From the NCBI GenBank assembly GCA_020058285.1, contig JAGVEL010000017.1, positions 2,027 to 66,026 on the forward strand: a stretch of 64,000 bases of DNA, read 5' to 3'. The translations under genes and the position numbers were made by a program. The notes under the pieces are model-generated. The model did not search any database, was not told the origin of the DNA, and saw only the letters and a program-made list of their open reading frames with translations. Position 1 is the stretch's first letter; each line of letters opens with the position of its first letter. This DNA is from Candidatus Omnitrophota bacterium (GTDB taxonomy: Bacteria; Omnitrophota; Gorgyraeia; JAHJTE01). Shown here in pieces: positions 10,058 through 64,000 of this stretch.

Positions 10058-10083
10058 ATATATTAATAACTAAGGAGAATACG

Positions 10084-35238: not shown

Positions 35239-38200
35239 TTATTTAAATACCTCTGGAAATTTCTTTTGCAACCATTCTAATATATAGTTACTAATTGCTC
35301 CTGCCTCAATAATTCTCTTTATTTTTTGTATCCCAAATGATTGTAGTTCTTTTAATATTTCTCCTCTATGGTAGGATACATCGCCATAATATTTTATATC
35401 CTCAATTACTTCAAACATTTCTTCTTCGGAAAGATGTCCACATATTGGCTCTACTTTTTCGTCACAGTTTAGAATAAAACCCACGATAATTTTCGAAACA
35501 TTATTGCCTTGTTTATATTCCTGTCCTCTATATTTATCTAATCGCAATTGGCCAAGGCAATAATGAATCATATCCACAGTTAAATCAATTGGCAATTTTG
35601 ATAAAATATAATCGAAGCTGCTCCTTTCTCTTCCAAGTAATGACAAGGCCTCATATATATTATATGGATCAAGATAATAATAAGCTATGAAGTCATCTTT
35701 TAAATCCTCGATGTAACCACTATCAAATCCATCTCTCTTGGAGAACAAATTGTATACCCATGTTGAAACATCCTTTTTAATTGCAGATTTCATTTTCTCT
35801 AAACTCGGCGCTCCCCACTTCCAGGGATTTTCTCTCCAGCGCGGATGCACATATCCTCCAAGCTCATCCTTATCAACAAGCTCCTGTAAGTTTGTCCTTC
35901 TTATATAGTATGTATCCAAGTATTCTTTCCATTCTTTATCGGTTCTATCATCAAAATCCATTAAGATATCTTTTAATGTGTTCCTTAAAAGATGATAAAT
36001 ATCCTCCTCTGGAGGCAATTTATATTCAAATACCAAATCATATAATCGCCCAATCCAGCTCTTATTTTTGAGTTCCCTATTGAAATATGTATATAAGGGC
36101 TTAGCATAACGAGTTATCTCTACATCATCTATATGCCCTGGCTCTACGTAGGTAATGCTATAATGTACAGTAACCTCATTAAAATCGTTTCCCCATCTTT
36201 CTCGGCCTGTTTCACATACAGCTATTATTATGAAACCGTCCTGCTCTAACTTCTTTTCTGCTTCGCGCTCTTGATCACATGGAACGCGTAAAAAGTGGCA
36301 ATCTCCCTTTATTTCCCGATATAATTCGAAACCTAAGAAATTAATCTCTAATCTTAATAATTTCCTTAATATATCTTCATTAGGGATTTCGTTCAAGGCT
36401 AGCTGCCACGTCTCTTTGAGTTTCTGATCGCTAAGTCCATTGTTTCTGGCTAATTTAAACCATTCAGAGGCTAATTCATTAATATCAAAAGTGCTGCTGA
36501 ATAAATCTTGAGTTAGTTTTAACCGATCCTCAGCCTTAAAATCTTCTGAGCCGAGCAAAGTTATCCATTCTGGAGATTTTAAACTAATCTCATCCAAGTT
36601 AGCTTGCCAATACAATACTTTTTGCCCATGCCTATGCTTCAAAGAGCCTTCTCTAACCAACCTAAACCCTAACTGCCTATAAAAATCCTTAACTAAAGCA
36701 TTCTTACTTGTAGGAATATATGTTCCTTGTAAAGTCGTAACGCCTTGCTCTCTAAGCTGATTTACTACATATGCCATAAATGCGTGTTCTACAGTTAAGC
36801 CAATTGCCCGGCAACTTAAACAAAATGTATCAATCTCCCACTCACAAATATTATAACCCCTGCCTAATCTCATTACACCGACTATGCCTGCATTCCCAAA
36901 CTTATCTATCAATTCTAAGGTAAATATTTTGGCCGTTAAAGAACCTACGCCTCTTACATCCCATTTCACCACTTCTTTAGAACGCTCTCCCGGAGTTAGA
37001 TTAAACTGATTTGTTCTTTGGGTTAATTGGAATATGCGTGATATATATGGCAGGTTTTCTTGGCCTTCCCGGATAATTATCTTCATATCTAAAGAACGAT
37101 AATATTCCTCTAAAGAAACAGCCTGTCCTTTTAATTCGTCCCTTTTGCTTTTAGCGAGATAGAGTTGGGTTCTACGCCTATCCTCCTCAGTGATTTTCCC
37201 CTCAGGAAATAGCCCCGAGCCAATTAATAATTGTATTCTTTCTATTGGCCTATCCGGAATATCTGGCGTGAAAACCTCGGGATAGCTTAATCTTATTAAC
37301 TCTCTTTCATGCGGACTGTCATCTATGAATACCAAACTATCCATACCAATATTTAACTCCTCGGCTATCTCCCTTAAATTTGTAGCCTTATCCTGCCAAT
37401 TGGCTTTAATAATCGTAAAGTCATCTTTTCTTAGAATCATCTCAGGATGTCTTTCTAATACCCCGATGACCTCTTCGGGATTATTCTTGCTGTTTATGGC
37501 TAAGATAATGTCTCTCTCTTTGAGTGCCCTTACTGTTTTTTGAAATTCCTTATGCTCTTCTGTTATCTTTATCCCGTTAAATCCGTCTTCTCCTACAATG
37601 CCAGACCACAATATACCGTCTGCATCCAGAACGAGGCATTTTTTGTTATTTTGCTGTACTGGCGAACTGACGGTTTCATCAAGATTTTCTATCGGCAACA
37701 CCCCAGCCGCAACTCCGATATCAGATTCGGCAGGAATAGCCTCGAATGTTTTAAATACCTCTGGAAAATTTTGCTTAAGCCAATCTAATATTTCTTGGTC
37801 TTCGCCAAAAATCTTTATAAGTCGCTCTTTGCCGATTGCCAACAATTCCTTCTGGATTGCACTTCTTATTGCTAACATTTCTTTGCGCCAGAGTTCTGAG
37901 GTGTAGTTTTTCTTAATAATTAATTCTACTAACAGATCGCTAAGATACTGACTCATTGACACCTGGCTAAATTCAGCCCTTGTTAGCCAGACAATAGGAA
38001 TATTCCCTTCAATCTTCCGGTCCCAACTTGGCTTTATGTTCATGGAATAATTAAACATATCAGCCGCTAAATCCGGTGCTAAGTACGAAGTAATCTGGCC
38101 GAATTTTTCAGAAATACCGAAAACATTTGAAAAGATTTTATAGGCATTTTCAGGGTCCATATAGTAATATGCTTTTAATATTTGGCTGGCATTTTGTGCT

Positions 38201-53200: not shown

Positions 53201-56200
53201 TTAGTTTCTTTTTCTGGATAACCGATTGGCGAAGAAGAAGTTTTGGTGGGCGTTGATGGCAAACCTTTTTCTTTTAAAATCTCTGTAATCTCACCATCAG
53301 CCGGCAACCTCTTGTTGCCATTTATCCTGATAAGCTTGCCTTGTTCGTTAAATTCCTCAAGTTCAGGAATAACAACATCACAAAGCGTTTTTGCTCTTCT
53401 ATCAAATATGCGTTCAGCTTGACGTCTATCAGCATATCTACGCCTTTTCAGCCATCTATTTTGAGCTATTGTGCGGTTAACGGAAATATAAATTACTGCC
53501 TGGATATTAAAACCCATATAATTAATAAAACTATATAATGTTTTCAAATTGTCGCTACTGGACGGTGAGACGTCTATGATCAATCCTTTAGAAATATCTA
53601 ATAAGTTTATTCCAGATCTTACTAAAACCCAATACAAGTACTTGTCCATTACTCTACTGGGTGTTCTATGAGCCAATAAGGCCTGTCTTGCATTAACTTC
53701 TTTACGCAATAATTCTCCTGTAGAAATAAATGGAATGCCTAATTTTTTGGACAATGATTGGCCTAAAGTAGTTTTGCCTGAAGCGGGCAAACCAAAAATT
53801 AACACTACTGGCGTCTTATTGTTAAAATTTATAGTAATTACTTTTCGAAATTTATAGATTAAATAAATGATATTGGCCTTAAGACATTCCCTTGTAAAAA
53901 TCTTCGCAATTATTTTTATCCATTTATTGTTTTTGACTCTAGCAAATATTGATATAGGCGAAGAAGAAGTTTGGGCTAGGGTGTTCCCTGGGGCGGTTTT
54001 TACTATTCTAAGAAAATACGCCTGGAATATGCTCATTTCAGTAACGATATAGTCCGGGATATCTGAAGTTACAAAAATTTGTTTTTCGCCTTTTATGCTA
54101 TTAAAATGCCCGGTTATCTCATCAGTATATTCAGCGTCCACAACTAATATCTGAATCTCGCCCCCCACTTTTAATCTATCAAAAAGCGCCTGGGCAAAAT
54201 CATTACCATAAGCCTCTTGTGGCGGAAACAACCGGAAACGCTCCAATGTTTTGCCTTCGCCAAACCAGGGAGAAATAATATAAATCTTTTCTAGTTGATC
54301 ACGCCTAAATAGTTGGCTAACTAGTTCTCTGACATCGCCATAGACTATCTTTATATTCTTAATTTTTTTCTTTTCTATCCTCGTCGGCAATTTTTCACCT
54401 GCCGAAGAAAATGGAGAACCGGGCGGTTGTTCAATACCAACAAATAATTTATCCGGATTTTGCCTAGCTTGTTGCACCAAAAATTTACCCCGGCCGTAAC
54501 CTATTTCTAAAACATTGGCTTCGTAAGTACGCCAAGGTTGCCCAACTACATTTCCAGATAAGGATTCATCAGGGAGTTTTGCAATTAGAGTCTTAGATAA
54601 ACGCTGGGCCGGTTCCGGATAATTTATTGACGAAGAAGAAGTTGTGGCTTTTGAAACATCTTCTAAATCTAAGGAACTATCTTTTAATGTCCTGACCGGT
54701 TCACCCTGAATCTCTCCACCTATCCTAAAACGAGGATTATCAAGATTGACCTCGTTATGGAGTTGGGATAAATCTTGAGCATGATGTCCTATATCGTCTC
54801 TGATCGCATCTTTTGAATCATTCCAGAAAAGACACAGGGACTCTCCAGATGTCACAAACAAAGCAGCGCTGTTTGTTACTAATAGATAAGTGATTTGATT
54901 TTTGTAAAGCGGGTAGATTCTTGCCGGCAATACAAAAATCTCAGTATCTGGACATTGGCTAACCTCATTCTCTAAATCAATTAGATATTTATTATCTTCG
55001 CTATTAGACTGTAAAAATATCCTTACTCTCTCTAAACCTAAATTATTCTTAAGATAATCAATTAATGACTTTACTGCCCAATAATTTTCTTTCAGGGCGC
55101 CGATTCTTTGACTAATGTGAGTAAGGCCAGTTATTATTTCACCTTGCCTTTCTCCTTGAAAGGCAACAGCTAAACAATTCCCAAAGGGATAGGTAGCAAT
55201 TACATCCTCATCTTTTAATACACCCCAGGCCATTTCGTTGTAATATGCATAGTAGAAATCTGAGATAAATCTATGCAGGCCTTCAAGCGGCTGGAATTTT
55301 AACTCTACGCTCAAAGGAGGATCAGACTTATGGCGTTTTTCAATCTTTATCAAATGCATCCTTTCAAAGCCTTTGGACGCTTGGAAAGGAGGTTCAGCAG
55401 GACTAAATAATCTTAAGAATTGTTCATATAACGCAAACATCCCCAAAAATCCAAGCCCAGCCAACATTGGTCCATGATCCATAGTCAATGGTCCACAGTT
55501 CCCTCCTTCGCTAAAGCCTAGGAGGGCAGGTATAGAAATCAGATGCCCAAGATATGGCATAAGACACAAAATTCCAATTCCCAAAAACACCCCGCCTAGA
55601 ATCTTCCAGGGGAATTTGTTAATTAAAGCCTTAAATAAACCCCAGCCTGTTTCCGGAGAAGTAATCGGCGAAGAAGAGATTTCGGCAGGAGTGGCGCTGA
55701 TTACATTCGGGTCGTGCTCTTCGGCCCTTTCTCTTGACTTTCTAAAAAGGGCTAAAAATCCAAATCCAGCCAATGTTAGTCCCTGCCTATCCGGCAGGCA
55801 GGCGTGGTCCATGGTCAATAGATTACAGATACTAGATATAAAACAGAAAATTCCAAAACCTAAAGCTAATATTATGATAACTCTTTCAAATCTATCCTCC
55901 CGACCTTTCCTATTTACAAAATCAGGGCCTGATTTCTTTTGTTTTCTATAAACAACCCAACCACTCCTGACATATGGCAACCTCTTAGTTTTAATCTTCG
56001 GTAATTCATCCTCTCCTTTGGGCACATCCGCCAGCGTTAAATCACAGATCCAATTTTGTTGAACTATTTTTGGCTCCTTCATTCCAAATTCTTTGGCGTC
56101 GATCCCCTCCAAACCACTTAAGGCATCATCCAATATATCTGTTCTTAAATACGATTTGTGGATGAATAGATAATCGCCTATTCTCATTAATCTGATTAAG

Positions 56201-59200
56201 TGACTATAAAAGGAAACAAAGAGAGATAGTGCCGAATTATCCCCTGGAACTTTGACAATATGAACCGTTGGTTTTCTAAAGGGAAGTGTTTTTAGCTGCG
56301 AGATTTGCCTTCCTTCAAGAATGATATTCAAAGGGTTTGAAGTCTCTTTTGAAATTACATGAAATCCATGAAAATGTTCTTTTTGGAGATGAAATTGCTC
56401 TTTTACTTTTTCAATCAATTCTTTAACTCTTCCGTACAGGAAACCCCACTGACTAGGAATCTTTTCGGGAGAGCCTATGTCTCTGCTAAAGGCTGGATCC
56501 TGTAAGTAAATTTGTTCAACATCAGGAAATCGTTGACTTAACTGCCTCACTGTTTCCACATCAATACCTGAAGCCCAATAATAAATCACCTTGACTTCTT
56601 GTCCTGTTTTAGGGAATCTATTTGCTTTGGTCATCCCCAAAAATCCAAAACCAGCCATTATTAGTCCCTGGTCAACAGTCCCCGCCTTCGCTAAAGCTAC
56701 GGCGGACAGGGATAGTCCATAGTTCAAAGATATAAGATACCAGAGATAAAACGCAAGACACAAAATCCCCACTCCCAAAACCGCCCCGCCGATGATTTTT
56801 AAGATTGCAGATATATAAACAGAAAAATTATACTTAAAGTGTATACAGCTGGCTGCTAACCATCCAGCAACCCATGAAAAATACGGACTAGTCCAGCGAA
56901 ATTTCTTCTCATATCTATAATAAACTTCATCTACTTTTCTTGAAAAAGCCCGAATTGAAGCTATATCATCATCAGTTGGCTCCACCCATTCCCCTAACCC
57001 TGGATCGTACATAAGACGATGTTTACAAACAAATTGCGAAGCGGCAAATCCATCTCCGAACTCCCTATCTAGCAGTCTCTCAAATTCTTCTATGGATACT
57101 GAAAGACAATTCAAAACTATACGACCGGTAAGACGTAAACCTAACCACATCTTTGCAACCCAGGAATTATTCCGTAAGCCGACAGCGATGAATCCAAATC
57201 CAGCCAAGAGTGGTCCATAGTCGATAGTCGATGGTCTATAGTTAATATCAAACCTAGCGAGAAGTGTTCCGCTTGGATTCAAACTCAAGAACGGCAACTG
57301 ATCAAGGAAACTCGGGGTGATGAATAAGAGATATAATAGAAGTAAGCAGGCGAAGGATAAACTGATAATGGCGAGTTTTCTATTTCCAAATAAATGATGC
57401 TGATTAAAATTATTATGCTCTTGCCGGCTAAATATACCGGGCCACTTATAGATAAGCCAAAGTAAAACAAGAGCAATGGCTGATTTTGGTTCAGCGTCTG
57501 CGCAACCAGTGAGGTAAAGTGTGTGGTTTTCTAAAATATATACAGCAATATTGCTGTATATAGCTACTGTCAAAAATAATGTTACAAGCGTAAAATAATA
57601 TAAATCTAATTTCTCCCTAAGTCGGTCATTAGTAAATATTTTGGTAATATTCTCAAGCCGTTTAATCTTAAATAAGCTTAAGTAAGAAATTAATGACAAT
57701 ATAACTGCAGGAAAGCCAATGAATAAACCGATATTTCTCCAGCTTAAATGATAATCATGATTGCCTCCAAGTTCAATTAACCGCTCTTTTGCGAATTCCG
57801 GCCAAATAAGGCTGATAGATATGAGCGCGACAATCGCGCCAACAATAACTAAGTGCGCTTTTTTGGTTTTTATGATACTCCTTAGCAGATTAATCGGCTT
57901 TTCAAGATGCAATTTGTCATATAAATTCAAAAATGGCCGGCCAAGATTCAGGCCCCAAATCATAACTGCCAATGAAGGAATGTTCATAAACTGTAAGAAT
58001 GTGAAAGCTACATTGTCAGGTAATGACTGGGCTATTGGGTATTTGAATAATAAAAGCGCCTCAACAGCCAAAATATCAATTATAATTTTTAAATCAACTT
58101 TACTTTCTGTCTTAAGCAGCCTTTGTTCAAACTTTTTATACACACAGTAAACGACAAAATTCACAGCTGCGGCTGACCAAAGCCCAAAACTTCTTGCCAA
58201 ACCATACTCTCCAGTTTTTGGAAAATAATTTTCAATGCCCAGCTGCATAATTCTAAATATCCAACCGTTCACTGCGCCTATTGCTAATTCCAAAGGTATT
58301 CTTAAAATATTATATGGGGTTGGATTAGTTCTTAAATATACGGTTATGAAATCAAATATTACCGTGATGATAGCTGAACCTAGAACTATAAACGCCAGAA
58401 TATTTACATTGCTCAGCGACCAATACCAGGAAAATGCTCCGCTGAAATATAAAATGCAGCTTAAGCCAGCTAAAACAATAGCCAGCCGGGCAAGCTTGCT
58501 GTTTTTAATTTTGGTAAATATTGATATCGGCGAGGAAACAAGGATTGGGCTGGAGGCTGATCTTTTTTGCTCCAATATCTTATTTAGTGCCAAATCTAAA
58601 GGCAAGCCCTGATGAAACTCTCTCTTAAGATATAAATCTCCGCTATCAATTACCACTGCTAAGGTATTATCAGAGGATACCAGGCACTGAGGAGTACATG
58701 ACAGGCCGTATTCTAATAGTCTTGTTTTAAGAATATTTACGCTGGCTCCTTCTGCGGATAATGCTTCTAGTTCGGACGCAGATAAAAATCTACCCCCCAC
58801 AGCTTGCATCACGTAAGCCAATTCATTATTTCCAAGACTGATTATATCGCAAAATTTCGGGCCAACTCCGATAATATCTGTAAATTGAGTCAGGTAAATT
58901 GCTTTTTTTATTGAATATTCCGAGGCCTGCCCAAGCTTTTCTACCACAACCGGCTTGCCTATCCCTTTAACAAAACCTAAATATACTCCGTTGTTATTAT
59001 TGCCTCTCTCACCATCTGTAAGTAGCCTGAATTTCAAATCGCCGTCCAATGAAAGCGGCCTGGCTAATAAGTCACCTAAGGAAACAATTTTCCTGACACC
59101 GTCATCCTGCCTTAATCTATCCATAACCCATAATCTCTTGGGGTCATATTCACCTGTTACTTCTAAATCTCTGGTATTAATGATATAATCTCCGGGATTT

Positions 59201-62200
59201 TTCCTATCTAATTTGATTGCTTCCGGAGATAAGCCAAAATCAATAAATCTACGTGCTGTTTGGTCATCTTTTAAATTATAAATAAAATAAGTCAATACTA
59301 ACGGCAGGATTGAAAGAAAGGTAAGTAATAATGGACTGTGGACTGTGGACTGTGGACTGACTGTCCCGAGCAATGTCGAGGCATGGGCTGAAGAAAAGCC
59401 GATTAAGGACAAAATAGTAAATATACCAGCTACAAGCAAGAAGTTAAATCTGGGCAGAGTGCCGCTTAAAGGCGAGCTGGATTCGGATTGTTTACCGGGT
59501 TCATATAATACTTCTACTCTAGACATCCATGCAGGAAATAGCTTGCCTGGAAATAGATCCATTAAAAATGTATTTCCATCGGGTTTAGCCCGTATTAGCC
59601 GCACTCTGATATCTCTAACGACAGCTCTTACCATATTAGATGACCGGAGATTATTAACCTCATCTATATGAGCTAGATAATATCGTATGCCTTGATCTTG
59701 GAGATATCTTAGGCTGACCTTGAACAGATTATATCCGATATTATTAGAAACATGCGTTGGGCTCCTAGCGATATCACCTTCGGCAAAGTCCTCAATTCTT
59801 ATATCTGGGGACAATATAGAGCAAAGTTCGTTAAACATAAATTTTCTAAGCATCATCAAAGTACGAAGGCCTACAATATTACCTCCGTCTCTGCTACGGA
59901 CAGCCCAAGCCTTGATCATATCTCTAATTCGGTCGGTTAAATCAAAATTTATAAGGTCAAAACTTATAACGGCACGAAAGTCAGATGCCGCACTTTCAGT
60001 TGACAATCTCAGAGCTTCTTCGGCAAACCGAGAATAATCTGAAGATTCTGCTGTCACAATCTCAAATTGCTCACCGATTGAGCCAGATTGACTACCCAAT
60101 GGTGAACTCTGCATTTCATTTAAAAACTCTAATACCCCCTCAGGGCCAGGGACTTTTGTATATGTAACCTTTTTGCCTAAGGCCGCAGATAGGTTTTGTT
60201 CAAAGCCAGCATAGATTGCGCTAACTTCAGGTAAAGCCAACATACTATGGTCGTTCAAACTATCGCCGAAGATTATTGTTTTCTTTAGGGGAATATTAAG
60301 CCGCTGAATTAAACTTAAGACAGCCTCGCCTTTAAGCACAACAGCAACATCAACCACTTCCGGAGTATAAAAGATATGTAATGTTTCATCTCTAATTTTC
60401 TCGTTTAATTTCTCAGCGATTTGCTTTGCATGTACACCTAACACTGAATCGGTAATCAATAGGCTGACCACGCTGTCTCTATTATCCAGTAATTTTAACC
60501 GACCATCCTCAAAATATTTCCGTAATCTAAGCTCATCAATTACATCCATCATCTGGCTTAGTATATGTCTCCTAGCCTCAGAGTCTATGATATTGCTGTT
60601 ATTATTATCAAATGTTAACTCCCCATTTCCGTCAAAATGCCAGGAACAGCCCCCGGTATCGGTAAAAAGGTGGATTTTATGAGCGTATTTTATTCTGGTC
60701 TGCTTATCAATATACTTAACTAACAATTCATCTAAACCAGGTATGCCGTTGACATTATGCATGCTTCTGCCGGTAATAATTGCTATATCCTTGCCTAATT
60801 TTAGTAATAATAACAAAGCCAACATTGGCTTAGAAATAGCTGTCCTGAATTTTCCTAAGGTGTCATCATAATCAAATATGAACAGCTTAAATTGCGATAA
60901 TTTTAACTTGTTATTTATTAACGAGAGAACGCTCAGTAATCTCTTAAGTTGGAGTAGAATGTTGTGGCTGCTGGAATCAGATTGACTAATTAATGGCGAG
61001 CTGGGTAAATTTTTCCTCGCCGCAAGATAATACATATTGCAAAGTCCTTCCGAAACAATTACTGGCTCGTCTTGGCCTACCTCAACTCTAAATTTCATTA
61101 TGGACTCCGCCTCTAAGCCTGCCAGCCTACATTCCTTTGCAACATATTCAGGCGGAGCTCCGCGTATATGAAACCTGCCAATTAATTTTTCAGGCCACAA
61201 ATAATCTAAAATAACCACCATACCATTGTTGTTTAAGACCTGGCTGACTTTAGATAAAATCTGACTAACCTCTCTCATATTGCACATAGATTCCTGAAAA
61301 AGCACAATATCAAATTTTTCAGTATCAGTGTTAACTTCTAATACTTCGAGTAAGTCAGCGGCATTTCCAACATAAGCTTTTATCCCAGCCTCTTTAGCTA
61401 TCTGCACCATCTGCTCAGCTATATCAATACCTACAATATCGTGTCCATCTTTAACTAATTCTGCTTCAACCGGCGCCTTACCCATTCCCAGAGATAGAAT
61501 CCTGCTGGGTTTATTTTCACCAATACCATTTATTTTTTCTTTTACCCATCTTCTAAACCCGATATTAAGCGTAATATATGTTCCTAAAATTGCCCATCTA
61601 AAACCAGACTTATCATAAACTAAATCCATCTGGTATTTATAAGCATTCTCAATTGCCTGTTCTGAGTCTGTTGTTCCAAGCAAAGCATTGATAAAATCCT
61701 GATTAAATCTAAACAATAATTGCCCGGTTACGCCAGCGACTTCAACTAATAACGAAAAATTTAAACGCTCTGGGTTATAAAAGTCTCTTATATAAGCATC
61801 TAAAAAGATTAAAAATCTGATTAATTCTTCTTCGGACATGGGGCAACGCCTGATTGCAAACATATTTATTTTTAATATTACTAATGTCTTATTATCTAAC
61901 TTATGAAACGGCTCGCTTTTTAAAATTTCTTCACAAAGATTATTTTCGCCATGCAAAACATTCCAACTATCTATATAAGAGTTATCCAATAAATATAAAA
62001 GTTGCGTTAGTAAGGTGTTTTTGTTTTGCGCTAAGTCAACTACGTTTATCGGCGAAGAAGAAATGAGCAGAGTTTTTGTTTTAGGGGTATTTTCAGGTTG
62101 TAATTGTTGTTTCAGTGCACTAGGTTTCGGGTAAGTGACTTGGATTGGTGATGAGGAAAGGAAGGAATTTTGACTATAGACTATTGACCATGGACTATTG

Positions 62201-64000
62201 ACTGATTCCGGCGGCGCCTGAGCAACCTGTGACCATGCCTGGATATAGGCAATAATCTGCTCTTTGTAGGTTAGGAAGTAATTCAAGAATAAAAGCGCAA
62301 AGAAAAACGCAAGAGCAATATTGCCGTCATTAATAACAAGTCCGGCACCTGGCACAAAATATACTACATTGTTCTGACCTTCAGAATGTTGTTGGCCAAT
62401 CAACTCTCTAGTTTTATAATCTGGCGAAAGGCCAAATCTAGTGAGAAGTTCTTCTGCCCTTTTAGCTTCCTGAGTCTCAAAAAGTTCTGGTCTTTTCTCG
62501 TTAAATCTCAATATCTTGTTTACTAAATCATCATAAGCGCCCTGCTCTAACTCAATAATCGATATATATAATGAATGACTCTCGCAACTACACCTTAAAA
62601 TTACCCGATTAACAGTAAAGTAATGTTCGACGAACTTAAGCCAATCAAAATCATAGGTGTTTATTTCTGTTTGCGATATGAAAGCCTTAAATGAATCCTG
62701 GATAATACTGCGTTCATTCTCGGCTATATGTGATATTTTTTGATCTTTAAAATTATAAGCAATGTCCAAATCTGAAGTTGCCAAAAAGCCATTGTAAGTA
62801 TTAAGCAGCATACTCAAGGCTTGGCTGCCAAATATACAAAAATCTAAAGATGAATCTATCTTTTCCTCAATAAGTTTTAGAGCCTCGACAAAAAGCGGGT
62901 GTATGGTAATTGTGTGCATTAATCCCATACCCTCAACCGGACATTGTAGATGATAACAATTATTTTTTGGATCAAGCTGCAAAGAGTCTTTAAAAGGAGT
63001 AAGTGTATGGCCTATATCTTTATCATAAAAATCTGCCTGGAACTCAAAATCAATCTTTCGTTCATTAACTAAAAACGCCGTAATCATTTTGGCTATTCTG
63101 TTACAATCGCTCCTGGTTAAAGAAAATCCTGTAATGAATTCTTCGCTGTCTAAAGAAACATCTTTAAAATCGCTCTTTAAATGAAGTAATTTACTGCGCA
63201 AGCTAAGAAGTGCGCTATCGCATAAAATATCAGGCTGATTTTTATAAAGCTCAGCTAATAATGCAACGCCTCGTTTATGATTATGGTTTATTAGTAGCCC
63301 GATTACATAACTCTCGCGGATTGTTCTAGTTAGAAGCGTATCGTCTTCTTTAAAAAGCGCACCCTGTAAAGTCCGTAAAAGATAATGAGGAGATGGGAGC
63401 CATATCTTTATCTTATCTATCTGCGCTAATACCACAATACTCTCTATCGCAACATAGAATTTTCTGGCTCCTATCTCAAGATTTAGTATCTGGTCAAAGA
63501 AATTGCCTACCTCATCATATTTTAAATTCAATTCTTTGCTCAATATCAAATATTCAGCTATTTCGTGGAATATTGCTATGGGCTGATTAAGAAGCGATTT
63601 ATGGAGGGCAACTAGGTTGGGATTGGCAAAACCAAACAAGTCTTGGAAAGGTGTTAAATAGGCATAAAATTCGGGTGGAGAATCTTCCAAGGCCTCTAAA
63701 AATGCTTCTAATAGCTGTTTATGAGCAGGAAAATCTACGCTTAACCTATGCAGCGCGTCAGCTAAAAGTTTATTATCTATTTTCTCCAATTCTAATTCAC
63801 CTAAAAAGCTGTTATTCTCTGTTGAAACAACCTGAGCAAATTTTTTCCCACCTCTATCTATTATCTCGCTTACCTTTGCGCGTTTTCCTATCTGTGGCAG
63901 GTCGTTATTTAAGTAATCCCCAATTTTCCTGAGTAACTCCAAAGCTGCAATATCTCTAGCCTCGCTAGCCGCATTTTTCTTCGAACTTCTTGCTATCTGC
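35239..64000 (-). CDS. Giant multidomain membrane-associated protein; over 9,580 codons in the window, 5' end beyond the window edge
   Basis: A single uninterrupted minus-strand ORF runs 35239..64000; hand translation past the TTG at 63942 shows no stop up to position 64000. Recognisable modules are listed as separate features. Confidence 0.85.
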   Translation of the reverse strand, partial: QIARSSKKNAASEARDIAALELLRKIGDYLNNDLPQIGKRAKVSEIIDRGGKKFAQVVSTENNSFLGELELEKIDNKLLADALHRLSVDFPAHKQLLEAFLEALEDSPPEFYAYLTPFQDLFGFANPNLVALHKSLLNQPIAIFHEIAEYLILSKELNLKYDEVGNFFDQILNLEIGARKFYVAIESIVVLAQIDKIKIWLPSPHYLLRTLQGALFKEDDTLLTRTIRESYVIGLLINHNHKRGVALLAELYKNQPDILCDSALLSLRSKLLHLKSDFKDVSLDSEEFITGFSLTRSDCNRIAKMITAFLVNERKIDFEFQADFYDKDIGHTLTPFKDSLQLDPKNNCYHLQCPVEGMGLMHTITIHPLFVEALKLIEEKIDSSLDFCIFGSQALSMLLNTYNGFLATSDLDIAYNFKDQKISHIAENERSIIQDSFKAFISQTEINTYDFDWLKFVEHYFTVNRVILRCSCESHSLYISIIELEQGAYDDLVNKILRFNEKRPELFETQEAKRAEELLTRFGLSPDYKTRELIGQQHSEGQNNVVYFVPGAGLVINDGNIALAFFFALLFLNYFLTYKEQIIAYIQAWSQVAQAPPESVNSPWSIVYSQNSFLSSSPIQVTYPKPSALKQQLQPENTPKTKTLLISSSPINVVDLAQNKNTLLTQLLYLLDNSYIDSWNVLHGENNLCEEILKSEPFHKLDNKTLVILKINMFAIRRCPMSEEELIRFLIFLDAYIRDFYNPERLNFSLLVEVAGVTGQLLFRFNQDFINALLGTTDSEQAIENAYKYQMDLVYDKSGFRWAILGTYITLNIGFRRWVKEKINGIGENKPSRILSLGMGKAPVEAELVKDGHDIVGIDIAEQMVQIAKEAGIKAYVGNAADLLEVLEVNTDTEKFDIVLFQESMCNMREVSQILSKVSQVLNNNGMVVILDYLWPEKLIGRFHIRGAPPEYVAKECRLAGLEAESIMKFRVEVGQDEPVIVSEGLCNMYYLAARKNLPSSPLISQSDSSSHNILLQLKRLLSVLSLINNKLKLSQFKLFIFDYDDTLGKFRTAISKPMLALLLLLKLGKDIAIITGRSMHNVNGIPGLDELLVKYIDKQTRIKYAHKIHLFTDTGGCSWHFDGNGELTFDNNNSNIIDSEARRHILSQMMDVIDELRLRKYFEDGRLKLLDNRDSVVSLLITDSVLGVHAKQIAEKLNEKIRDETLHIFYTPEVVDVAVVLKGEAVLSLIQRLNIPLKKTIIFGDSLNDHSMLALPEVSAIYAGFEQNLSAALGKKVTYTKVPGPEGVLEFLNEMQSSPLGSQSGSIGEQFEIVTAESSDYSRFAEEALRLSTESAASDFRAVISFDLINFDLTDRIRDMIKAWAVRSRDGGNIVGLRTLMMLRKFMFNELCSILSPDIRIEDFAEGDIARSPTHVSNNIGYNLFKVSLRYLQDQGIRYYLAHIDEVNNLRSSNMVRAVVRDIRVRLIRAKPDGNTFLMDLFPGKLFPAWMSRVEVLYEPGKQSESSSPLSGTLPRFNFLLVAGIFTILSLIGFSSAHASTLLGTVSPQSTVHSPLLLTFLSILPLVLTYFIYNLKDDQTARRFIDFGLSPEAIKLDRKNPGDYIINTRDLEVTGEYDPKRLWVMDRLRQDDGVRKIVSLGDLLARPLSLDGDLKFRLLTDGERGNNNNGVYLGFVKGIGKPVVVEKLGQASEYSIKKAIYLTQFTDIIGVGPKFCDIISLGNNELAYVMQAVGGRFLSASELEALSAEGASVNILKTRLLEYGLSCTPQCLVSSDNTLAVVIDSGDLYLKREFHQGLPLDLALNKILEQKRSASSPILVSSPISIFTKIKNSKLARLAIVLAGLSCILYFSGAFSWYWSLSNVNILAFIVLGSAIITVIFDFITVYLRTNPTPYNILRIPLELAIGAVNGWIFRIMQLGIENYFPKTGEYGLARSFGLWSAAAVNFVVYCVYKKFEQRLLKTESKVDLKIIIDILAVEALLLFKYPIAQSLPDNVAFTFLQFMNIPSLAVMIWGLNLGRPFLNLYDKLHLEKPINLLRSIIKTKKAHLVIVGAIVALISISLIWPEFAKERLIELGGNHDYHLSWRNIGLFIGFPAVILSLISYLSLFKIKRLENITKIFTNDRLREKLDLYYFTLVTLFLTVAIYSNIAVYILENHTLYLTGCADAEPKSAIALVLLWLIYKWPGIFSRQEHNNFNQHHLFGNRKLAIISLSFACLLLLYLLFITPSFLDQLPFLSLNPSGTLLARFDINYRPSTIDYGPLLAGFGFIAVGLRNNSWVAKMWLGLRLTGRIVLNCLSVSIEEFERLLDREFGDGFAASQFVCKHRLMYDPGLGEWVEPTDDDIASIRAFSRKVDEVYYRYEKKFRWTSPYFSWVAGWLAASCIHFKYNFSVYISAILKIIGGAVLGVGILCLAFYLWYLISLNYGLSLSAVALAKAGTVDQGLIMAGFGFLGMTKANRFPKTGQEVKVIYYWASGIDVETVRQLSQRFPDVEQIYLQDPAFSRDIGSPEKIPSQWGFLYGRVKELIEKVKEQFHLQKEHFHGFHVISKETSNPLNIILEGRQISQLKTLPFRKPTVHIVKVPGDNSALSLFVSFYSHLIRLMRIGDYLFIHKSYLRTDILDDALSGLEGIDAKEFGMKEPKIVQQNWICDLTLADVPKGEDELPKIKTKRLPYVRSGWVVYRKQKKSGPDFVNRKGREDRFERVIIILALGFGIFCFISSICNLLTMDHACLPDRQGLTLAGFGFLALFRKSRERAEEHDPNVISATPAEISSSPITSPETGWGLFKALINKFPWKILGGVFLGIGILCLMPYLGHLISIPALLGFSEGGNCGPLTMDHGPMLAGLGFLGMFALYEQFLRLFSPAEPPFQASKGFERMHLIKIEKRHKSDPPLSVELKFQPLEGLHRFISDFYYAYYNEMAWGVLKDEDVIATYPFGNCLAVAFQGERQGEIITGLTHISQRIGALKENYWAVKSLIDYLKNNLGLERVRIFLQSNSEDNKYLIDLENEVSQCPDTEIFVLPARIYPLYKNQITYLLVTNSAALFVTSGESLCLFWNDSKDAIRDDIGHHAQDLSQLHNEVNLDNPRFRIGGEIQGEPVRTLKDSSLDLEDVSKATTSSSSINYPEPAQRLSKTLIAKLPDESLSGNVVGQPWRTYEANVLEIGYGRGKFLVQQARQNPDKLFVGIEQPPGSPFSSAGEKLPTRIEKKKIKNIKIVYGDVRELVSQLFRRDQLEKIYIISPWFGEGKTLERFRLFPPQEAYGNDFAQALFDRLKVGGEIQILVVDAEYTDEITGHFNSIKGEKQIFVTSDIPDYIVTEMSIFQAYFLRIVKTAPGNTLAQTSSSPISIFARVKNNKWIKIIAKIFTRECLKANIIYLIYKFRKVITINFNNKTPVVLIFGLPASGKTTLGQSLSKKLGIPFISTGELLRKEVNARQALLAHRTPSRVMDKYLYWVLVRSGINLLDISKGLIIDVSPSSSDNLKTLYSFINYMGFNIQAVIYISVNRTIAQNRWLKRRRYADRRQAERIFDRRAKTLCDVVIPELEEFNEQGKLIRINGNKRLPADGEITEILKEKGLPSTPTKTSSSPIGYPEKETKDLVGQGNDYLSVLERLTCLADSQYTTEINQSLKKLILKAKEGAKINNRTEEFINILKLYLDGTNYEIVEFVRKQLISLRSILKQELTHSYAKPKTRIELLRQHRASLDKDIVLFIDPAEDIILYRIGKDDKGKTPVNLINETAEKIMDSENHKSLLIVGLPSAKDGRLPRIFDRKLYVPFAFAKTAVLVTKTPYGQKVFRKVSVLEDRRYIERALKVIDDLKGREIDWRELEGYGIMLRSLFGVRRVSGTIKVDKCGNVTRENKSISFSELPDELLKYIEEERIYPELFDKHGKLLCTFSDSSSLADDLEENIAVLTSHERGKYRFGRSLHFIGGSYDVVISFNKTIWPLQAICAGDIDNFNEKINKFIQVELQRDIGENDDFLFTCSPTAIDKVLAREFKDIADGSILRVKYLRVLSNRKLNFNGEHPVDTKFVQPGDYVVAWFIKDGVKPLLLQYMKIEDYEAQEFLKAAVAESSKVYDGRGNLRMTFCHHRSTLEEIRKITSADGQGAAKLIWSTDGDGCWRFRIDTKNKKSRQYLRYRIGVKNQPLVVWTNPVTGYPELAITLEDLRNLTTSSIVYKLSNNNSRGSKNTELVSRLNSELKQNEKLLQEISGYPLEKIFAKYPHLTRAVLYRRDNSTNTLCGNFTGKFRKVSAHQLRSDNRKNSATSRKIMQIIYSVLSKVGIRPADLEAALEDRRNSINWLMVRYTQPDTIQAARLAILYLICNADATPIDVEQDVINGWIDEWREKYTNIETVLTDFAELERKLRELEEDVGAKPVVNSIVHTEKRTIILDILSEIWRYIPKTRIERMLDFPRVLIGKFEQEKQRRAQLCIWARLDEPCREDSDVDYKILALTLKEKLVGIISDDCLEAERLSGQEDSASVFSARRIMSELTAVLELDKKLGTGFISKELRTEITTMTSHVAGVLSTRRAERVEKDTQNRNNHDSNGSIDLTHSRNNFHHSLPNPWESEIGSLEGRNSRNLRRYNQRFEQGNNILSASSPLRPGGELFGFSLVAKETNPDWQVRQISSSSPVDAEGPENPEFKVFYTSEESPKDNPFKAQIEELLDKARNNIIQSLDDFPGSKEEPYLVPVLQGGNFTHPHWQEVFKPIFEHLDLLNGFDLVGSLNKTLKDMTEFIKQDLNIILVGGPRYIHFHKNNQFVIAYLDIEQKTLYISLKFFNSRYLLRHTSLVLQFIAEAVSRIKFSSRENIPPEIKQLITMLDLPDSLIKTINYYLYQQYDYDDKALRDLRTQTQVAQTAGYLQRCNLSPTQLFLDKFREGARFLSIVFAPLSSELYLLLKDIASAIPDLSQQGKLTHLVFYYHEEIAKIQKAVNRYIEADKDEIDKRRKELLSLIDETLKYRTGFLKISLPAEFEQYEQEYNKDAEDLRQKASRAYMDVFDKVRRANRTNNKHPIKIIFIDGDSSAQVAAKKLRRIIFNHNPKACILIHGNAYHLLKGPIFEEHFGASRPIKRINKQGLLKYQLQDIIGTSGFQTIFYTTLQRTLSDSANPEDSLTSAARDWHFGSFALDRIENSPVAEELVAYWLWQMKYGEVADGVIFALDRRDDGGEPETVWTGITSDSDKQPKPVPVSTPIASEIPANITHIFNEKGYRIASSPITSSTIKDLAEAINEYTSKAAVSVDLSQQGKVRLISGDVELAEITITNEHPFYLVANRLNIRVINFSREVEQWIVEKLFMTLQNEHRQGVSRPKRRYSDLSPKWTAARKQAGTGFAYDVLINPEEKDYGSPEWDAKEVELEIQIIKYRFLSVLKDDTHFYKRDIDALLRPEGTQLKPKSLFRIVNAFNDWFGKIWDPVFCKHLAWEHYEKNRLILIDYIKGLLPYLEAYDNEHKTDLTTFAKISLSLLERLGKSRISESEYEEFIRKAKALSMPESSSPIEPPDSRQGGGKNHRANGNRRKTRRYHFEDFLYIDSRKFLEIYPLIIEAIRGKALSEDEMKWLKGFARLFDETGKMSVTSKHQDALTFADLRWVLEYGLDYRQDESLEEEKDFRFPYICQYTLFGVSEICARNSIAHKWLTTNEPGEKNWHNFPVIKILGVEFILDVAYEQFYDLYWQNQLNCKIVLLPYALVKQGLFKDRSYMYTDWPEITRINLSPTGAVESYEIRDRHKDGRVLLRGDYLTGSEFILSLVSGGESTIYLQGDSHDSAITIKDDYEGNLAFIVGKNLVGSNKINTEGIERIEIWRATDDRCSLCIIRKTNKKDLPPLNPRQGGAVSSPVESRSISCYLLTKYLLVNLETRMAYFGLSDELKERVRNILGDIKSLGVFRDGEYVYNPLLLNLFRKLKIDMPLAYLYAQAYALAKTTPHLNDLDEAAVDDCIEKILKLKPRFIRSLFCEYFPYLVKLEDKITVDSEFIATHVGKENFIRQLIGSFFTQNLEFTNSASTNFTLLITGYKDEIKKLQKIINQFFSELGQKDYLDELLKQARELRHNKKGILGFSGRLTDLETSFEEQLGVLGVKTVEDKFKKQELESLAEAIERLPLYKERAAKLNSYEDVAIKVFLTDPDEAVQQCSETQKQKLSTAITATSLELISYWQVAYAVILANLAHFDQETFKFFKERVPILLPQDQHKGKKKGERRDLRPILIGRNGLARVINEYFVFGVDPNDIYLDGWGASVEKEDCRRVGVNEPYLKSLDQSIDFFNEYRETEAYKKFGLGPRIINSIFPIIEAFRKIDQREQGRAKCVDFALLYAALLVALDIVSQDKIFIIGNAGHLFVYIDEDDGYLVSNKLIFDKEMIASGDRRAEEALRTCTGSAVSNIFTFKGFYDAYRGMNNENNGFSSIPGQELKRILEKIDTFFGFPLRKYNLSDVKYVDSPAIMPDLKQFINPERLDNGAIKLGEFRVEEFKQEMYRLAQQYRETQPDSPLCFLAYAARDLLNVEYPEVFAIANNRDWLVREAAEKIATSIDDAIKYAREGLKLGKAFLARLKIPRPDEVIRFGTNEPAHLVPVLYGLIYHSPHISQAEKQEMYYVYADDDSFVYVNGKFISTKTFEVTNEIPKNITHIFNEKGHYESIASSPVPEKSSYSQRDEGLSQQGCIVKATISTAAGFLEVIYSQDGAENNFYELWLNGERIDQNNYGHPGIFYDNPAGFCFIVREDTRGGILEVPYLSLESQYQWLGIGSALVSWLSQQASEKDINTLLSGKTKNINAIKIFLGALEEGSRKFEIEVLTIFGHTFWRRISYRKLLSLFEKEPYKNFMRISGRPRTSSPVTQTAVAALFANLKLFLKGQSYLKEVPKTIKAIIFIGVIVTSVAFAFVSIWIDTLSQSAWFLFFIQFLPYAASALILCAAASLFGQWRKGAVATWQLIKNYTIVQFGIEAYWYCIFVGLSLTYDKLSIDRPLHISFSVLTIVIFNLINASLTSSLIEVLNYPANLLEFFLRKHVYKLTLEQSRREKKENLWKLTWFSLKWWWVVGLVIFSDVNITFFDTTIHLKPTEWVFVVVIATSILEFLFSKKKANILDGRLIQQNNEVYSKMPVIGCDVASMPQQIHYQQDDGQGNDLSTSSPLKSKGSFEHYMGNKVINSFSSQQGYFTLEKISSTGYQTILKIEAKLLAVALDVIQRKRIAMTGEGNLLFLAGILRGDYHTNIYSVLEYSFKARQMLEQDKWWQVEDISDIEIVNLHRMPKVNLCKIFGFLESMAAKGLTWFDFIREYPIEVLKLTDDTFFILDGSHRLETAILLGERKIRAKVYSIKQGSEIGSRVIEFAAKRRQELNKQYQFDTAQRRFTDDADKIIKISFGTRQLESPKLCQYLWSTDQPKEIAIFYFPEIFYKAGYIKPGRINTHSPAFAYFKAFILACLGSGSIEDDILVSVIKDIRRKQKTVSSPVRQLNNSGQRHYHRENADPWSGVFESEDLEEDWLGYHHKSRNSSRARHYQQGKQSRRSARAKGKSQQETQFDMVAVTGTLASLLRHGAIFYDFSLDEFGFVSLETVLPILQQEYNGLEKKDLIDLAENDPDGRFEIKQNRIRARYGHSIKVLPVGEPIEPPEFLYHGTPTANTQAVLCSGLKSMRRQFVHFSLDPDKALSIALRRARNVTALKIKAREAHESGVKFYREADVFLAGFIPGNFIVATELTAARSAADIQHGCVNLNESAIIRRFAKEDGYVVLDTQMANKQTLLRIDERLFRVIHAAEYCLSQEMAVPIEANLLIMTDMFREIPIGDLRIAGPDYIVKARHLTEDQKWWQEVGLKEIPIAEIQRMHSSHLFRYLRFLDYLCDNKLFWEDFIDSYPIDVFQLPWGSYFTLDGMHRLDLACLVGAQTITSRIYHNKIDDPNGHLMSGWMVGYAKELEKEYRFSNFKERFIHQLYALTPLLNAFPQFSSYEHKGDRLTMTFNFPALPAIPLLPIENNIEFIYLVSLAQNITGMGSERFVNRLLEEWRKINKQIQGSSPIGNDDTNPKSSSAKRFWPGSGDLKSPQSTVNGPRLTETRQHSPSARCGLSGICRDEPQRADGSEFGLGRVAHYRHNTSEENPRVGNNELVRQEQSILEELKNQLGKAHVSASLVSSLFDRLKSDKKVTEKAVILSALIKNLLIRFTRRRRYQNFEAEDISKPIYIAEALIASPDIIERAGELLSLTSKLKMTKGVRRELGESIKKAEEGKGGRFKRSVFDMICIDAKNHKANIGKAFVVDCINDYYVLLSCGHLSKSARTGILKINEKAKKTVGRTFIVMDNESDDISVLLMHKRDVNRKVFKDGKLVPIKLLLTPPARRFAWVIKGSNHDVSVGHLVLTGDKVVLLGANTYRGDSGAPYLIRIGKGYFVIAVHGYPGPVGRRLTHKIFAEMNIALQGKESNFSLVVSNDSFIETIREFLQKQLQNDKGVKCATLHSNSLSLGDGVRKHIHPHGKEKGRGGKAYCQNPKGEQGFGEFNNPRTTVAHSLTNRVFGRDEPQRADGSEFGLDRVAHWPGNYQSSSPLADDDVTKYMHPYWEEKGWKWEKPSLTDIRFITIRFLDPIQFVYSCWPRTPSEEGELHPKRAQNASQILKAYYYMDPENAYKIFSNVFGISEKFGQITSYLAPDLAADMFNYSMNIKPSWDRKIEGNIPIVWLTRAEFSQVSMSQYLSDLLVELIIKKNYTSELWRKEMLAIRSAIQKELLAIGKERLIKIFGEDQEILDWLKQNFPEVFKTFEAIPAESDIGVAAGVLPIENLDETVSSPVQQNNKKCLVLDADGILWSGIVGEDGFNGIKITEEHKEFQKTVRALKERDIILAINSKNNPEEVIGVLERHPEMILRKDDFTIIKANWQDKATNLREIAEELNIGMDSLVFIDDSPHERELIRLSYPEVFTPDIPDRPIERIQLLIGSGLFPEGKITEEDRRRTQLYLAKSKRDELKGQAVSLEEYYRSLDMKIIIREGQENLPYISRIFQLTQRTNQFNLTPGERSKEVVKWDVRGVGSLTAKIFTLELIDKFGNAGIVGVMRLGRGYNICEWEIDTFCLSCRAIGLTVEHAFMAYVVNQLREQGVTTLQGTYIPTSKNALVKDFYRQLGFRLVREGSLKHRHGQKVLYWQANLDEISLKSPEWITLLGSEDFKAEDRLKLTQDLFSSTFDINELASEWFKLARNNGLSDQKLKETWQLALNEIPNEDILRKLLRLEINFLGFELYREIKGDCHFLRVPCDQEREAEKKLEQDGFIIIAVCETGRERWGNDFNEVTVHYSITYVEPGHIDDVEITRYAKPLYTYFNRELKNKSWIGRLYDLVFEYKLPPEEDIYHLLRNTLKDILMDFDDRTDKEWKEYLDTYYIRRTNLQELVDKDELGGYVHPRWRENPWKWGAPSLEKMKSAIKKDVSTWVYNLFSKRDGFDSGYIEDLKDDFIAYYYLDPYNIYEALSLLGRERSSFDYILSKLPIDLTVDMIHYCLGQLRLDKYRGQEYKQGNNVSKIIVGFILNCDEKVEPICGHLSEEEMFEVIEDIKYYGDVSYHRGEILKELQSFGIQKIKRIIEAGAISNYILEWLQKKFPEVFK
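36500..36950 (-). other. Giant ORF module: GNAT-like acyltransferase fold following the FkbH-like domain
   Basis: The HAD-IIIC plus GNAT arrangement is typical of FkbH-like proteins. The segment is GNAGIVGVMRLGRGYNICEWEIDTFCLSCRAIGLTVEHAF. Confidence 0.35.
37100..37650 (-). other. Giant ORF module: HAD-IIIC (FkbH-like) domain
   Basis: LVLDADGILWSGIVGEDG (FkbH signature xLDxDxTLWxGvxGEDG)...AINSKNN...FIDDSPHE. Confidence 0.55.
38411..38475. repeat. Intragenic direct repeat, copy 1 (encodes RDEPQRADGSEFGL); 40 nt identical to 39732-39795
   Basis: ctaagccaaattcagaaccatctgctctctgcggttcatc is identical in both copies. The copies flank the protease module. Confidence 0.8.
38790..39400 (-). other. 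Giant ORF module: chymotrypsin-fold serine protease (GDSGAP catalytic-Ser motif)
   Basis: CGHLSKS (candidate His), ESDDISVLLM (candidate Asp), and TYRGDSGAPYLIRIGKGYFVIAVHGYPG (GDSG motif at about 38876-38893). Confidence 0.5.
39732..39795. repeat. Intragenic direct repeat, copy 2
   Basis: See copy 1. Confidence 0.8.
40250..40650 (-). other. Giant ORF module: ParB/sulfiredoxin-like domain 2 (DGxHR motif)
   Basis: YFTLDGMHRLDLACLVG at about 40370. It is homologous to the module at 42000-42400. Confidence 0.4.
40900..41440 (-). other. Giant ORF module: Tpt1/KptA RNA 2'-phosphotransferase domain
   Basis: LASLLRHGA...IRARYGHS...FLYHGTPTANTQAVLCSGLKSMRRQFVHFSLDPDKALSIALRR...KFYREADVFL matches the KptA signature (LRH..., RA.QGHS, HGT, R..VHLS). 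Confidence 0.6.
42000..42400 (-). other. Giant ORF module: ParB/sulfiredoxin-like domain 1 (DGxHR motif)
   Basis: FFILDGSHRLETAILLGE, at about 42100. Confidence 0.4.
42700..43500 (-). other. Giant ORF: third transmembrane cluster
   Basis: AIIFIGVIVTSVAFAFVSIWI...WWWVVGLVIFSDV hydrophobic helices. Confidence 0.5.
53250..53800 (-). other. Giant ORF module: P-loop NMP-kinase-like domain (Walker A GLPASGKTT)
   Basis: VVLIFGLPASGKTTLGQSLSKKLGIPFISTGELLRKE, with downstream lid-like and Arg-rich segments. Confidence 0.55.
54000..54560 (-). other. Giant ORF module: TrmB-like (m7G-type) SAM methyltransferase fold
   Basis: VLEIGYGRGKFLVQQARQNPDKLFVGIEQ...KIVYGDVRELV...KIYIISP. Confidence 0.45.
55400..59500 (-). 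other. Giant ORF: two polytopic transmembrane regions containing repeated (T/S)(M/I)D(H/Y)GP(M/L)LAG(F/L)GF(L/I) helix motifs
   Basis: There are long runs of hydrophobic segments. The motif recurs at about 57211, 55801 and 55471. Confidence 0.5.
60170..60900 (-). other. Giant ORF module: HAD-superfamily phosphatase (Cof/IIB-like)
   Basis: Motif I FIFDYDDTLG, motif II IITGRS, motif IV GDSLNDHSM. Confidence 0.6.
61050..61520 (-). other. Giant ORF module: class I SAM-dependent methyltransferase domain
   Basis: Motif I ILSLGMGKAP, then VGIDIAEQMVQIA, then FDIVLFQESMCNM, then NGMVVI. Confidence 0.55.

Follow-up and report, generated by a model that had tools for sequence, protein, structure and literature searches.

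Recurrent SSP[ILV] motifs as candidate polyprotein cleavage sites in a giant multi-enzyme protein of Omnitrophota

The giant open reading frame and its recurrent motif

The window considered here, a 64,000-nucleotide stretch of contig JAGVEL010000017.1 from a Candidatus Omnitrophota bacterium, contains a giant open reading frame (ORF; 35239-63942, minus strand) of at least 9,567 amino acids (aa), in which a short peptide motif, SSP[ILV], recurs between modules that match unrelated enzyme families. With about even confidence, these motifs are interpreted as the cleavage sites of a polyprotein. Because there is no in-frame stop codon from the ORF to the window edge (63943-64000), the N-terminus is probably outside the window; translation probably begins upstream of the listed TTG, and a length above 9,567 aa is likely.

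Domain matches in frame are spread along the whole giant ORF. Two overlapping Pfam tilings of the whole protein (E <= 0.01) and PDB sequence searches identified several unrelated families that tile the protein with no single family dominant (Pfam names Methyltransf_11, Hydrolase_3, Methyltransf_4, AAA_17/ADK, PTS_2-RNA and, weakly, GNAT; Table 1). Approximately 17 transmembrane (TM)-like helices are located at aa 535-2800, aa 6289 and aa 6848-6954, and the membrane modules (aa ~1500-2800 and 6850-6970) are mixed with soluble enzymes. The gene fits the Omnitrophota giant multi-enzyme type (the 'multi-enzyme metabolic cluster' class). Genes of giant size are already recognised as characteristic of Omnitrophota (bioRxiv 10.64898/2026.06.07.730766; bioRxiv 10.1101/2023.11.21.568195; PMC10066038), and a 2026 preprint sets the threshold for a giant at >= 10 kAA, i.e. 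at least ten thousand amino acids (bioRxiv 10.64898/2026.06.07.730766). The window protein resembles the Omnitrophota giants in its very long ORF, its many unrelated Pfam domains (methyltransferases, HAD, GNAT, kinases and HATPase_c, with ROK in relatives) and its poor sequence conservation, but differs in its recurrent delimiter or putative cleavage motif and its trypsin-like protease, neither of which is described in that literature. Assignment to the MARTX toxins or to the Archaeovorin/dockerin-type giants was rejected, as the defining domains were searched by Pfam and not found: the tilings of the window giant contain no RTX/MARTX repeats, no C80 cysteine protease domain, and no dockerin, TSP3, C39 peptidase or SecA-like domains.

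The motif SSP[ILV] is present 22 times in the giant ORF, against a mean of 0.47 and a maximum of 3 in 1000 composition-preserving shuffles, and the longer form SSSP[ILV] is present 9 times against 0.03 expected. The residue that follows SSP is I, L or V at 22 of 22 SSP tripeptides, and the residue that precedes it is S, A, V or T at 19 of the 22 sites (P, Q and G occur once each); the motif is (S/A/V/T)-S-S-P-(I/L/V). Among the xyP[ILV] and SSx[ILV] combinations, this motif alone is enriched in the giant protein, and only one SSPI was counted in the window's 23 remaining ORFs (9,668 aa). The serine content of the giant protein is fairly high (6.9%, with I, L and V together at approximately 25%), but an artefact of chance or composition in a serine-rich protein is refuted by the shuffle test, by the count in the neighbouring ORFs and by the strictness of the residue after SSP, and it retains practically no probability. 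An earlier note on this DNA had reported about 20 recurrences of SSSP-type linker motifs, which these counts confirm, and the comparison with shuffled sequence that it proposed places the motif well above compositional expectation. All 16 peptides that it quoted are present in the giant ORF; its sites are real, but five were missing from its list (aa 597, 629, 981, 4584 and 7111), and the recurrence that it placed at 54640 is a variant without proline, SSSI (aa 3103). This variant and another without proline, SSSL (aa 3883), may be extra sites.

A DNA motif on the plus strand had also been claimed. The shorter core of that motif, GGCGAAGA (TCTTCGCC on the coding strand), does recur, with 9 occurrences that are all within the giant gene and eight of which are in the SSP frame, but the claim was overstated for the 13-mer GGCGAAGAAGAAG, which is exact at only two places in the window (53228 and 53957). 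The source of the DNA consensus is the codon preference TCT-TCG-CCR of the window motif: the second serine is encoded by TCG at 13 of 22 sites, whereas TCG accounts for 9% of serine codons overall and for 6 of the 33 in Ser-Pro pairs outside the motif. Across the window sites, the I/L/V position uses 12 different codons, and its degeneracy is confined to the level of amino acid class. Because relatives encode the same peptide by AGY-TCN, AGC-AGC or mixed codons whereas the window uses TCN, selection is judged from the codon comparison to act on the peptide and the signal to be at the peptide level. A feature mainly of the DNA, which would be either a recombination scar of module assembly or swapping or a genome-wide oriented motif that translates as SSP by chance, could explain the excess of TCG at the motif and would suit the quick turnover of module content between syntenic loci, but it is highly improbable given that TCTTCGCC does not occur in the remaining 35 kb of the window on the giant's strand, that the 13-mer is present only twice, that relatives use a different codon family (AGY versus TCN) and that the fourth position is written in 12 codons. 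A genome-wide oriented motif of the Chi, KOPS or uptake-sequence type was rejected on the same two counts, of the 8-mer outside the giant gene and of the 13-mer. The genome-specific codon preference suggests that the motif sites within one genome are related at the DNA level, and this similarity may reflect how linkers or modules spread.

Recurrence of the motif through duplicated modules was rejected as well: internal repeats in the giant protein are few (five pairs by self-BLAST), and only one or two of the pairs touch motif flanks. Two of the pairs are of module size with 27-32% identity (aa 7128-7333 versus 7702-7909, and aa 8524-8731 versus 9359-9567).

Module borders, other giant proteins and the embedded protease

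The earlier note's proposal that the motifs are at module boundaries is borne out by the recognised domains of four giants, 26 in number and covering 11-21% of the sequences: none of the 78 motifs in these proteins is inside any of the domains (combined P ~6e-7), and the location within folded domains that the earlier note had set against its proposal was thus observed for none. Several domains start 3-12 aa after a motif, among them FkbH in the window protein, PFK in P0001 (a complete protein of 7,387 aa from the syntenic locus of metagenome-assembled genome (MAG) GCA_030153545.1), Metallophos in L012 and a receiver domain in P0009; the profile match begins at position 1-2 of the domain, as it would at a native N-terminus. 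A HATPase_c domain ends 9 aa ahead of a motif. The hydrophobic fraction within 8 aa on each side of the motif is 0.27, compared to a background of 0.37 (p = 6e-14), and the distances between motifs are mostly 200-1000 aa, i.e. protein-like, with occasional doublets 6-46 aa apart. In the window protein, the doublets are 6-32 aa apart at aa 597/629, 1797/1803 and 4584/4615 (62047-62154, 58525-58554 and 50089-50193), and similar ones are found in relatives; if both sites of a doublet were cut, short spacer peptides would come free. TM-like helices begin 8-30 aa after four motifs (59467-59478, 58525-58536, 55663-55674 and 43492-43503), and would be N-terminal membrane anchors after cleavage.

Motifs in hydrophobic-poor segments between domains would also be expected of an uncleaved inter-module signature, such as a conserved hinge, a docking or post-translational modification site, a sequon for proline-directed Ser phosphorylation or for O-glycosylation, or a binding site for a chaperone or scaffold, in a giant that it would organise or regulate, that stays intact and whose protease acts on prey or host proteins or in HtrA-like quality control. 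This alternative is possible but rather unlikely. The motif is serine-rich with an S-P core, like many kinase and glycosylation sequons, but no kinase or glycosyltransferase partner was identified, and the domains that start 3-12 aa after a motif do so like native N-termini. Passive linkers usually vary in sequence and length, whereas in this case nearly invariant residues occupy five positions in giants whose modules are unrelated.

In nine pooled giant ORFs (48,788 aa), SSP is followed by I, L, V or M at 119 of 127 occurrences. It is followed by I, L or V at 17 of 17 in P0001, despite the fact that the FkbH module is all that P0001 has in common with the window protein, and by I, L, V or M at 8 of 8 in the upstream giant neighbour of P0001, 20 of 20 in L012, 6 of 6 in L009, 19 of 19 in P0009, 6 of 6 in P0005 and 14 of 20 in L054, where the remainder are SSPA (5) and SSPP (1); L056 has 12 [SG]SP[LV] sites. 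The relaxed form SSS[VLI] is present in relatives L006 and L005, and no such motif was found in relatives L013, L014 and L008. To judge from these sequences, the motif is independent of module identity and recurs across giants with almost entirely different modules. Its information content is approximately 16 bits over five positions and declines from approximately 2 bits at the I/L/V position to 0.3 bits at the next residue, where G, S, A and N are enriched (p = 4e-5). This asymmetry fits recognition by a protease on the non-prime side with a cut after I/L/V.

The earlier note had also pointed to an embedded protease, and the module in question (aa 8205-8420) is assigned, on the evidence of a family alignment and a structural model, as a chymotrypsin-fold (PA-clan, S1-like) serine protease with predicted activity and the triad His8250/Asp8283/Ser8353. 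It carries SCGH...DDISVLL...GDSGAP. A word-index search with the module yielded no homologue, and HMMER run in full against 1.84 billion representatives yielded 36 relatives (best E = 5.5e-34). In an alignment of 22 sequences, the His, the Asp and the Gly-Asp-Ser-Gly are invariant (H46/D79/S149 in module numbering). The matches of the window protease to PDB by phmmer are weak and almost all are to calicivirus 3C-like proteases around the nucleophile; the family profile matches the Spl proteases of S. aureus (E = 1.7e-7) and also V8 protease, factor Xa, HhoA and norovirus 3CL; and 19 of the 22 aligned family members match Pfam Trypsin_2 (best E = 1e-8). An AlphaFold2 (AF2) model from the single sequence (predicted local distance difference test score, pLDDT, of 44.8) gave meaningless Foldseek matches and was replaced by a model from the 22-sequence alignment with pLDDT 91.7 and a predicted template modelling score (pTM) of 0.90. 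Foldseek of this model against PDB gave 372 matches at E <= 0.001, of which the 50 top-ranked are all chymotrypsin-fold proteases; DegP/HtrA, Deg2/Deg9, sobemovirus protease, arterivirus nsp4, SplB and uPA are matched with probability 1.00. The segment bounded by motifs that contains the protease (aa 7999-8521) is 523 aa long, similar in size and layout to free-standing homologues of 486-714 aa. A repeat pair (aa 8004-8096 versus 8464-8536, window ~38330-39930) places a 'DEPQRADGSEFGL(G/D)RVAH' segment on both sides of the protease module.

Five or more independent giants (the window protein, P0005, P0009, L054 and L056) combine an SSP-type motif with a member of this protease family. Other protease-bearing giants have different delimiters with module-like spacing: L[TV]S[KR]SGGH in P0018 and P0025 (10 and 6 copies, respectively) and EGR[SG][LM]PNP in P0019 (8 copies, followed by an acidic GG(D/E)E(V)TEPAP tail). 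That other lineages have equally strict delimiters at the same spacing speaks against an uncleaved signature, and lineage-specific strict delimiters fit a co-evolving pair of enzyme and site better than a physical hinge. Protease-bearing metagenome loci were scanned with a 6-sequence alignment and the pattern GDSG[SA]PYL[IV], so that the matches are biased toward 'PY' proteases. The residue after GDSGxP is Y in SSP-type hosts versus S, I or L in SGGH- and EGRSLP-type hosts, which is a lead only, from a small and partly biased sample.

Proposed processing and comparison with known systems

If the motifs are cleavage sites, the ORF would encode a giant multi-enzyme polyprotein in which the motif marks the borders of protein-sized modules. 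The motif would be read on the non-prime side, with a small residue at P5, Ser at P4 and P3, Pro at P2 and an aliphatic residue at P1; the scissile bond would follow I/L/V, with a preference for a small residue at P1'. The prime candidate for the enzyme is the embedded chymotrypsin-fold serine protease, which is itself bracketed by two motifs, and, in the manner of RNA-virus polyproteins, processing would divide a single translation product into approximately 20 individual enzymes and membrane proteins. HtrA/DegP enzymes favour Val or Ile at P1, and S1 proteases commonly accept Pro at P2, e.g. in AAPV and AAPL substrates. We infer the cleavage itself, the position of the cut after I/L/V and the identity of the embedded protease as the cutter. 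The earlier note had listed hinges, sites of glycosylation or lipidation, and cleavage sites as possible functions of the motif; of these, cleavage appears best because the motifs are at module borders, the hydrophobic fraction dips around them, a protease is embedded and its family co-occurs with delimiters, but lipidation is unsupported, there being no Cys and no lipobox.

Several observations weigh against cleavage of the motifs by the embedded protease. Some domain junctions have no motif (e.g. HATPase_c/kinase in L012); the codon bias of the motif sites within a single genome hints at a history at the level of DNA that the cleavage model leaves unexplained; the window's own protease sequence, with its segment searched alone, is below Pfam thresholds and has no Pfam match; no copy of the protease is detectable in P0001 (7,387 aa, 17 motifs), in 3,340 aa of its upstream giant neighbour or in the FkbH-derived loci; and no obvious delimiter was found in the protease-bearing giants L052, P0017, P0027 and P0030. 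For a protein such as P0001 to be cleaved, the protease would have to act in trans, be located in the remaining 1,650 aa of the neighbour, or be a different enzyme. P0001 with its 17 motifs is also what an uncleaved signature would predict, and the presence of HtrA/DegP quality-control proteases among the top structural matches suits that alternative too. Cleavage of the motif by an enzyme other than the embedded S1-like protease, whether a trans-acting housekeeping or dedicated protease encoded at another place in the genome or a protease of the host or prey after delivery, is improbable. It would account for P0001; the free-standing family members of 486-714 aa could act in trans; and other peptidases are known in such giants (M23 in P0001; C39 and S8 according to West-Roberts et al. 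2023, bioRxiv 10.1101/2023.11.21.568195). However, it would leave the joint presence of SSP-type delimiters and the protease family in at least five independent giants, and the bracketing of the protease module by the motif, without a role.

Returning to the polyprotein interpretation, West-Roberts et al. 2023 regarded the state of giants, as a single molecule or a cut-up product, as an open question with the cleavage points unknown, and proposed C39 and S8 peptidases in giants (bioRxiv 10.1101/2023.11.21.568195); neither peptidase was found in the window giant. In the papers checked, no earlier account of the motif, or of bacterial polyproteins of this kind, was found. A strict delimiter shared across genomes together with an embedded protease that looks site-specific makes that question experimentally concrete, with predicted scissile bonds, a predicted enzyme and a predicted catalytic Ser, and the delimiter is a practical rule by which giants can be split into units for annotation and structure prediction.

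The proposed arrangement resembles the polyproteins of RNA viruses (picornavirus and calicivirus 3C/3CL, arterivirus nsp4, sobemovirus serine protease) in having many units per ORF, an embedded chymotrypsin-fold protease and a short border motif that is lineage-specific, and proteases of RNA-virus polyproteins are among the sequence and structural matches of the window protease. Different strict delimiters in each giant combined with one protease family are the pattern of viral polyproteins. In contrast to them, the gene is a cellular, chromosomal one beside housekeeping and sugar-utilisation genes, and its modules are metabolic and modification enzymes and membrane proteins; the putative P1 residue is aliphatic with Pro at P2, compared to Gln/Glu in RNA-virus polyproteins, and cleavage is here a prediction. 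In MARTX toxins (Vibrio RtxA), an array of unrelated enzymatic modules is freed by an internal cysteine protease that cuts inter-module linkers after Leu. The proposed working of the window giant, an internal protease releasing the modules of a large bacterial protein, is similar, but the protease would be a His/Asp/Ser chymotrypsin-fold enzyme and the site a strict five-residue one. The Spl and HtrA/DegP proteases (PA clan, S1B/S1C) are the best matches by profile (Spl, E = 1.7e-7) and by structure (DegP, Deg2/9, SplB), and the Spl enzymes are site-specific, with recognition motifs of 3-4 residues. Unlike the window protease, Spl and HtrA/DegP are secreted or periplasmic enzymes that stand alone and do not form part of a polyprotein, and we know of no recurrent substrate motif encoded in cis with them.

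A wider proposal is advanced tentatively, at less than even confidence: a large class of giant bacterial proteins, apparently of Omnitrophota, may be true cellular polyproteins, in which a chymotrypsin-fold protease and a matching short delimiter (SSP[ILV], SKSGGH, EGRSLPNP and others) co-evolve in each lineage, cleavage of one translation product releases dozens of enzymes and membrane proteins, and modules are gained and lost at the delimiters. If so, these giants would express genes in a way that has until now been seen only in viruses and, on a small scale, in MARTX toxins; its possible uses include stoichiometric expression in tiny genomes and the delivery of a cocktail of effectors into prey. 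Polyprotein processing, if confirmed, would be a cellular and not only a viral strategy to express ordinary enzymes.

Table 1. Positions of motifs and modules in the giant protein and of selected neighbouring genes
Feature	Position in giant protein (aa)	Position in window (strand)	Remark
SSPI	597	62143..62154 (-)	doublet with aa 629
SSPI	629	62047..62058 (-)	second of aa 597/629 doublet
S-adenosylmethionine (SAM) methyltransferase module	791-915		Pfam/PDB
SSPL	981	60991..61002 (-)	between methyltransferase and HAD modules
Cof-type HAD phosphatase module	1019-1247		Pfam/PDB
SSPL	1279	60097..60108 (-)	31 aa past HAD module end
SSPL	1489	59467..59478 (-)	TM-like helix begins 8 aa on
SSPI	1797	58543..58554 (-)	doublet with aa 1803
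SSPI	1803	58525..58536 (-)	multi-TM module follows
SSPI	2757	55663..55674 (-)	
SSSI variant without Pro	3103	54625..54636 (-)	possible extra delimiter, 37 aa ahead of TrmB-like methyltransferase
TrmB-like methyltransferase module	3143-3290		Pfam/PDB
SSPI	3327	53953..53964 (-)	between Methyltransf_4 and adenylate-kinase-like modules
Adenylate-kinase-like P-loop module	3380-3545		Pfam/PDB
SSPI	3570	53224..53235 (-)	24 aa past kinase-like module
SSSL-ADD variant	3883	52285..52296 (-)	like SSSPLADD site at aa 8518
SSPL	4584	50182..50193 (-)	doublet with aa 4615
SSPV	4615	50089..50100 (-)	second of aa 4584/4615 doublet
SSPI	5201	48331..48342 (-)	
SSPI	5480	47494..47505 (-)	
SSPV	5820	46474..46485 (-)	
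SSPV	6622	44068..44079 (-)	
Weak GNAT module	~6677-6760		Pfam/PDB
SSPV	6814	43492..43503 (-)	
SSPL	7111	42601..42612 (-)	
SSPV	7431	41641..41652 (-)	73 aa ahead of Tpt1/KptA module
Tpt1/KptA RNA 2'-phosphotransferase module	7508-7676	40915-41421 (-)	E = 1.8e-25; PDB matches 1e-27
SSPI	7995	39949..39960 (-)	N-terminal border of protease-containing segment
Embedded chymotrypsin-fold serine protease module (predicted)	8205-8420	38683-39330 (-)	family alignment, profile, AF2/Foldseek
SSPL	8518	38380..38391 (-)	C-terminal border of protease-containing segment
SSPV	8759	37657..37668 (-)	FkbH-like module starts 5 aa later
FkbH-like HAD module	8768-9123	36574-37641 (-)	only module common to window protein and syntenic relative P0001
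PilZ protein		33840-35147 (-)	
GH94 phosphorylase		30273-32693 (-)	
Ribonucleotide reductase with TSCPD domain		15500-17779 (-)	

Relatives of the modules, syntenic locus and neighbouring genes

Apart from an FkbH module with 48% identity to that of the window protein, P0001 contains HATPase_c, ROK, HD, two M23 peptidases and PFK. Because module content is nearly all different while PilZ, a sugar ABC transporter and GH2 are conserved downstream, fast turnover of modules within a stable locus is implied by the comparison of the two sequences. The syntenic locus (L001-L004, from MAG GCA_030153545.1 and Joint Genome Institute (JGI) contigs, 1-32164) has two adjacent giant genes, of at least 4,991 aa and of 7,387 aa, that overlap by 22 nt. 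The closest relatives of the FkbH module (44-60% identity) are inside giant ORFs of MAGs labelled Candidatus Omnitrophota or 'uncultured Planctomycetia/Planctomycetales', and in the 13 closest loci (L005-L016 and L019, from Omnitrophota- or Planctomycetia-labelled MAGs) the module is within giant ORFs that exceed the 20-kb loci. In the loci of other phyla that were checked (among L017-L046), the FkbH-like module is free-standing, in proteins of 400-860 aa. Word-index searches for homologues gave only 3 matches with the C-terminal 5,000 aa of the giant and no match at E <= 1e-5 with the methyltransferase-plus-kinase segment. The interior of a giant protein is an unusual setting for Tpt1/KptA, an enzyme of the ADP-ribosyltransferase-like superfamily.

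In the remainder of the window (1-35147), all listed genes are on the strand of the giant gene except two short ORFs (9524-10605), and the GC skew is steadily negative. Besides the genes in Table 1, the neighbours in this part encode a sugar ABC transporter, a GPH symporter, a GH2-like protein, ROK and LacI regulators, MnmG and HisG.

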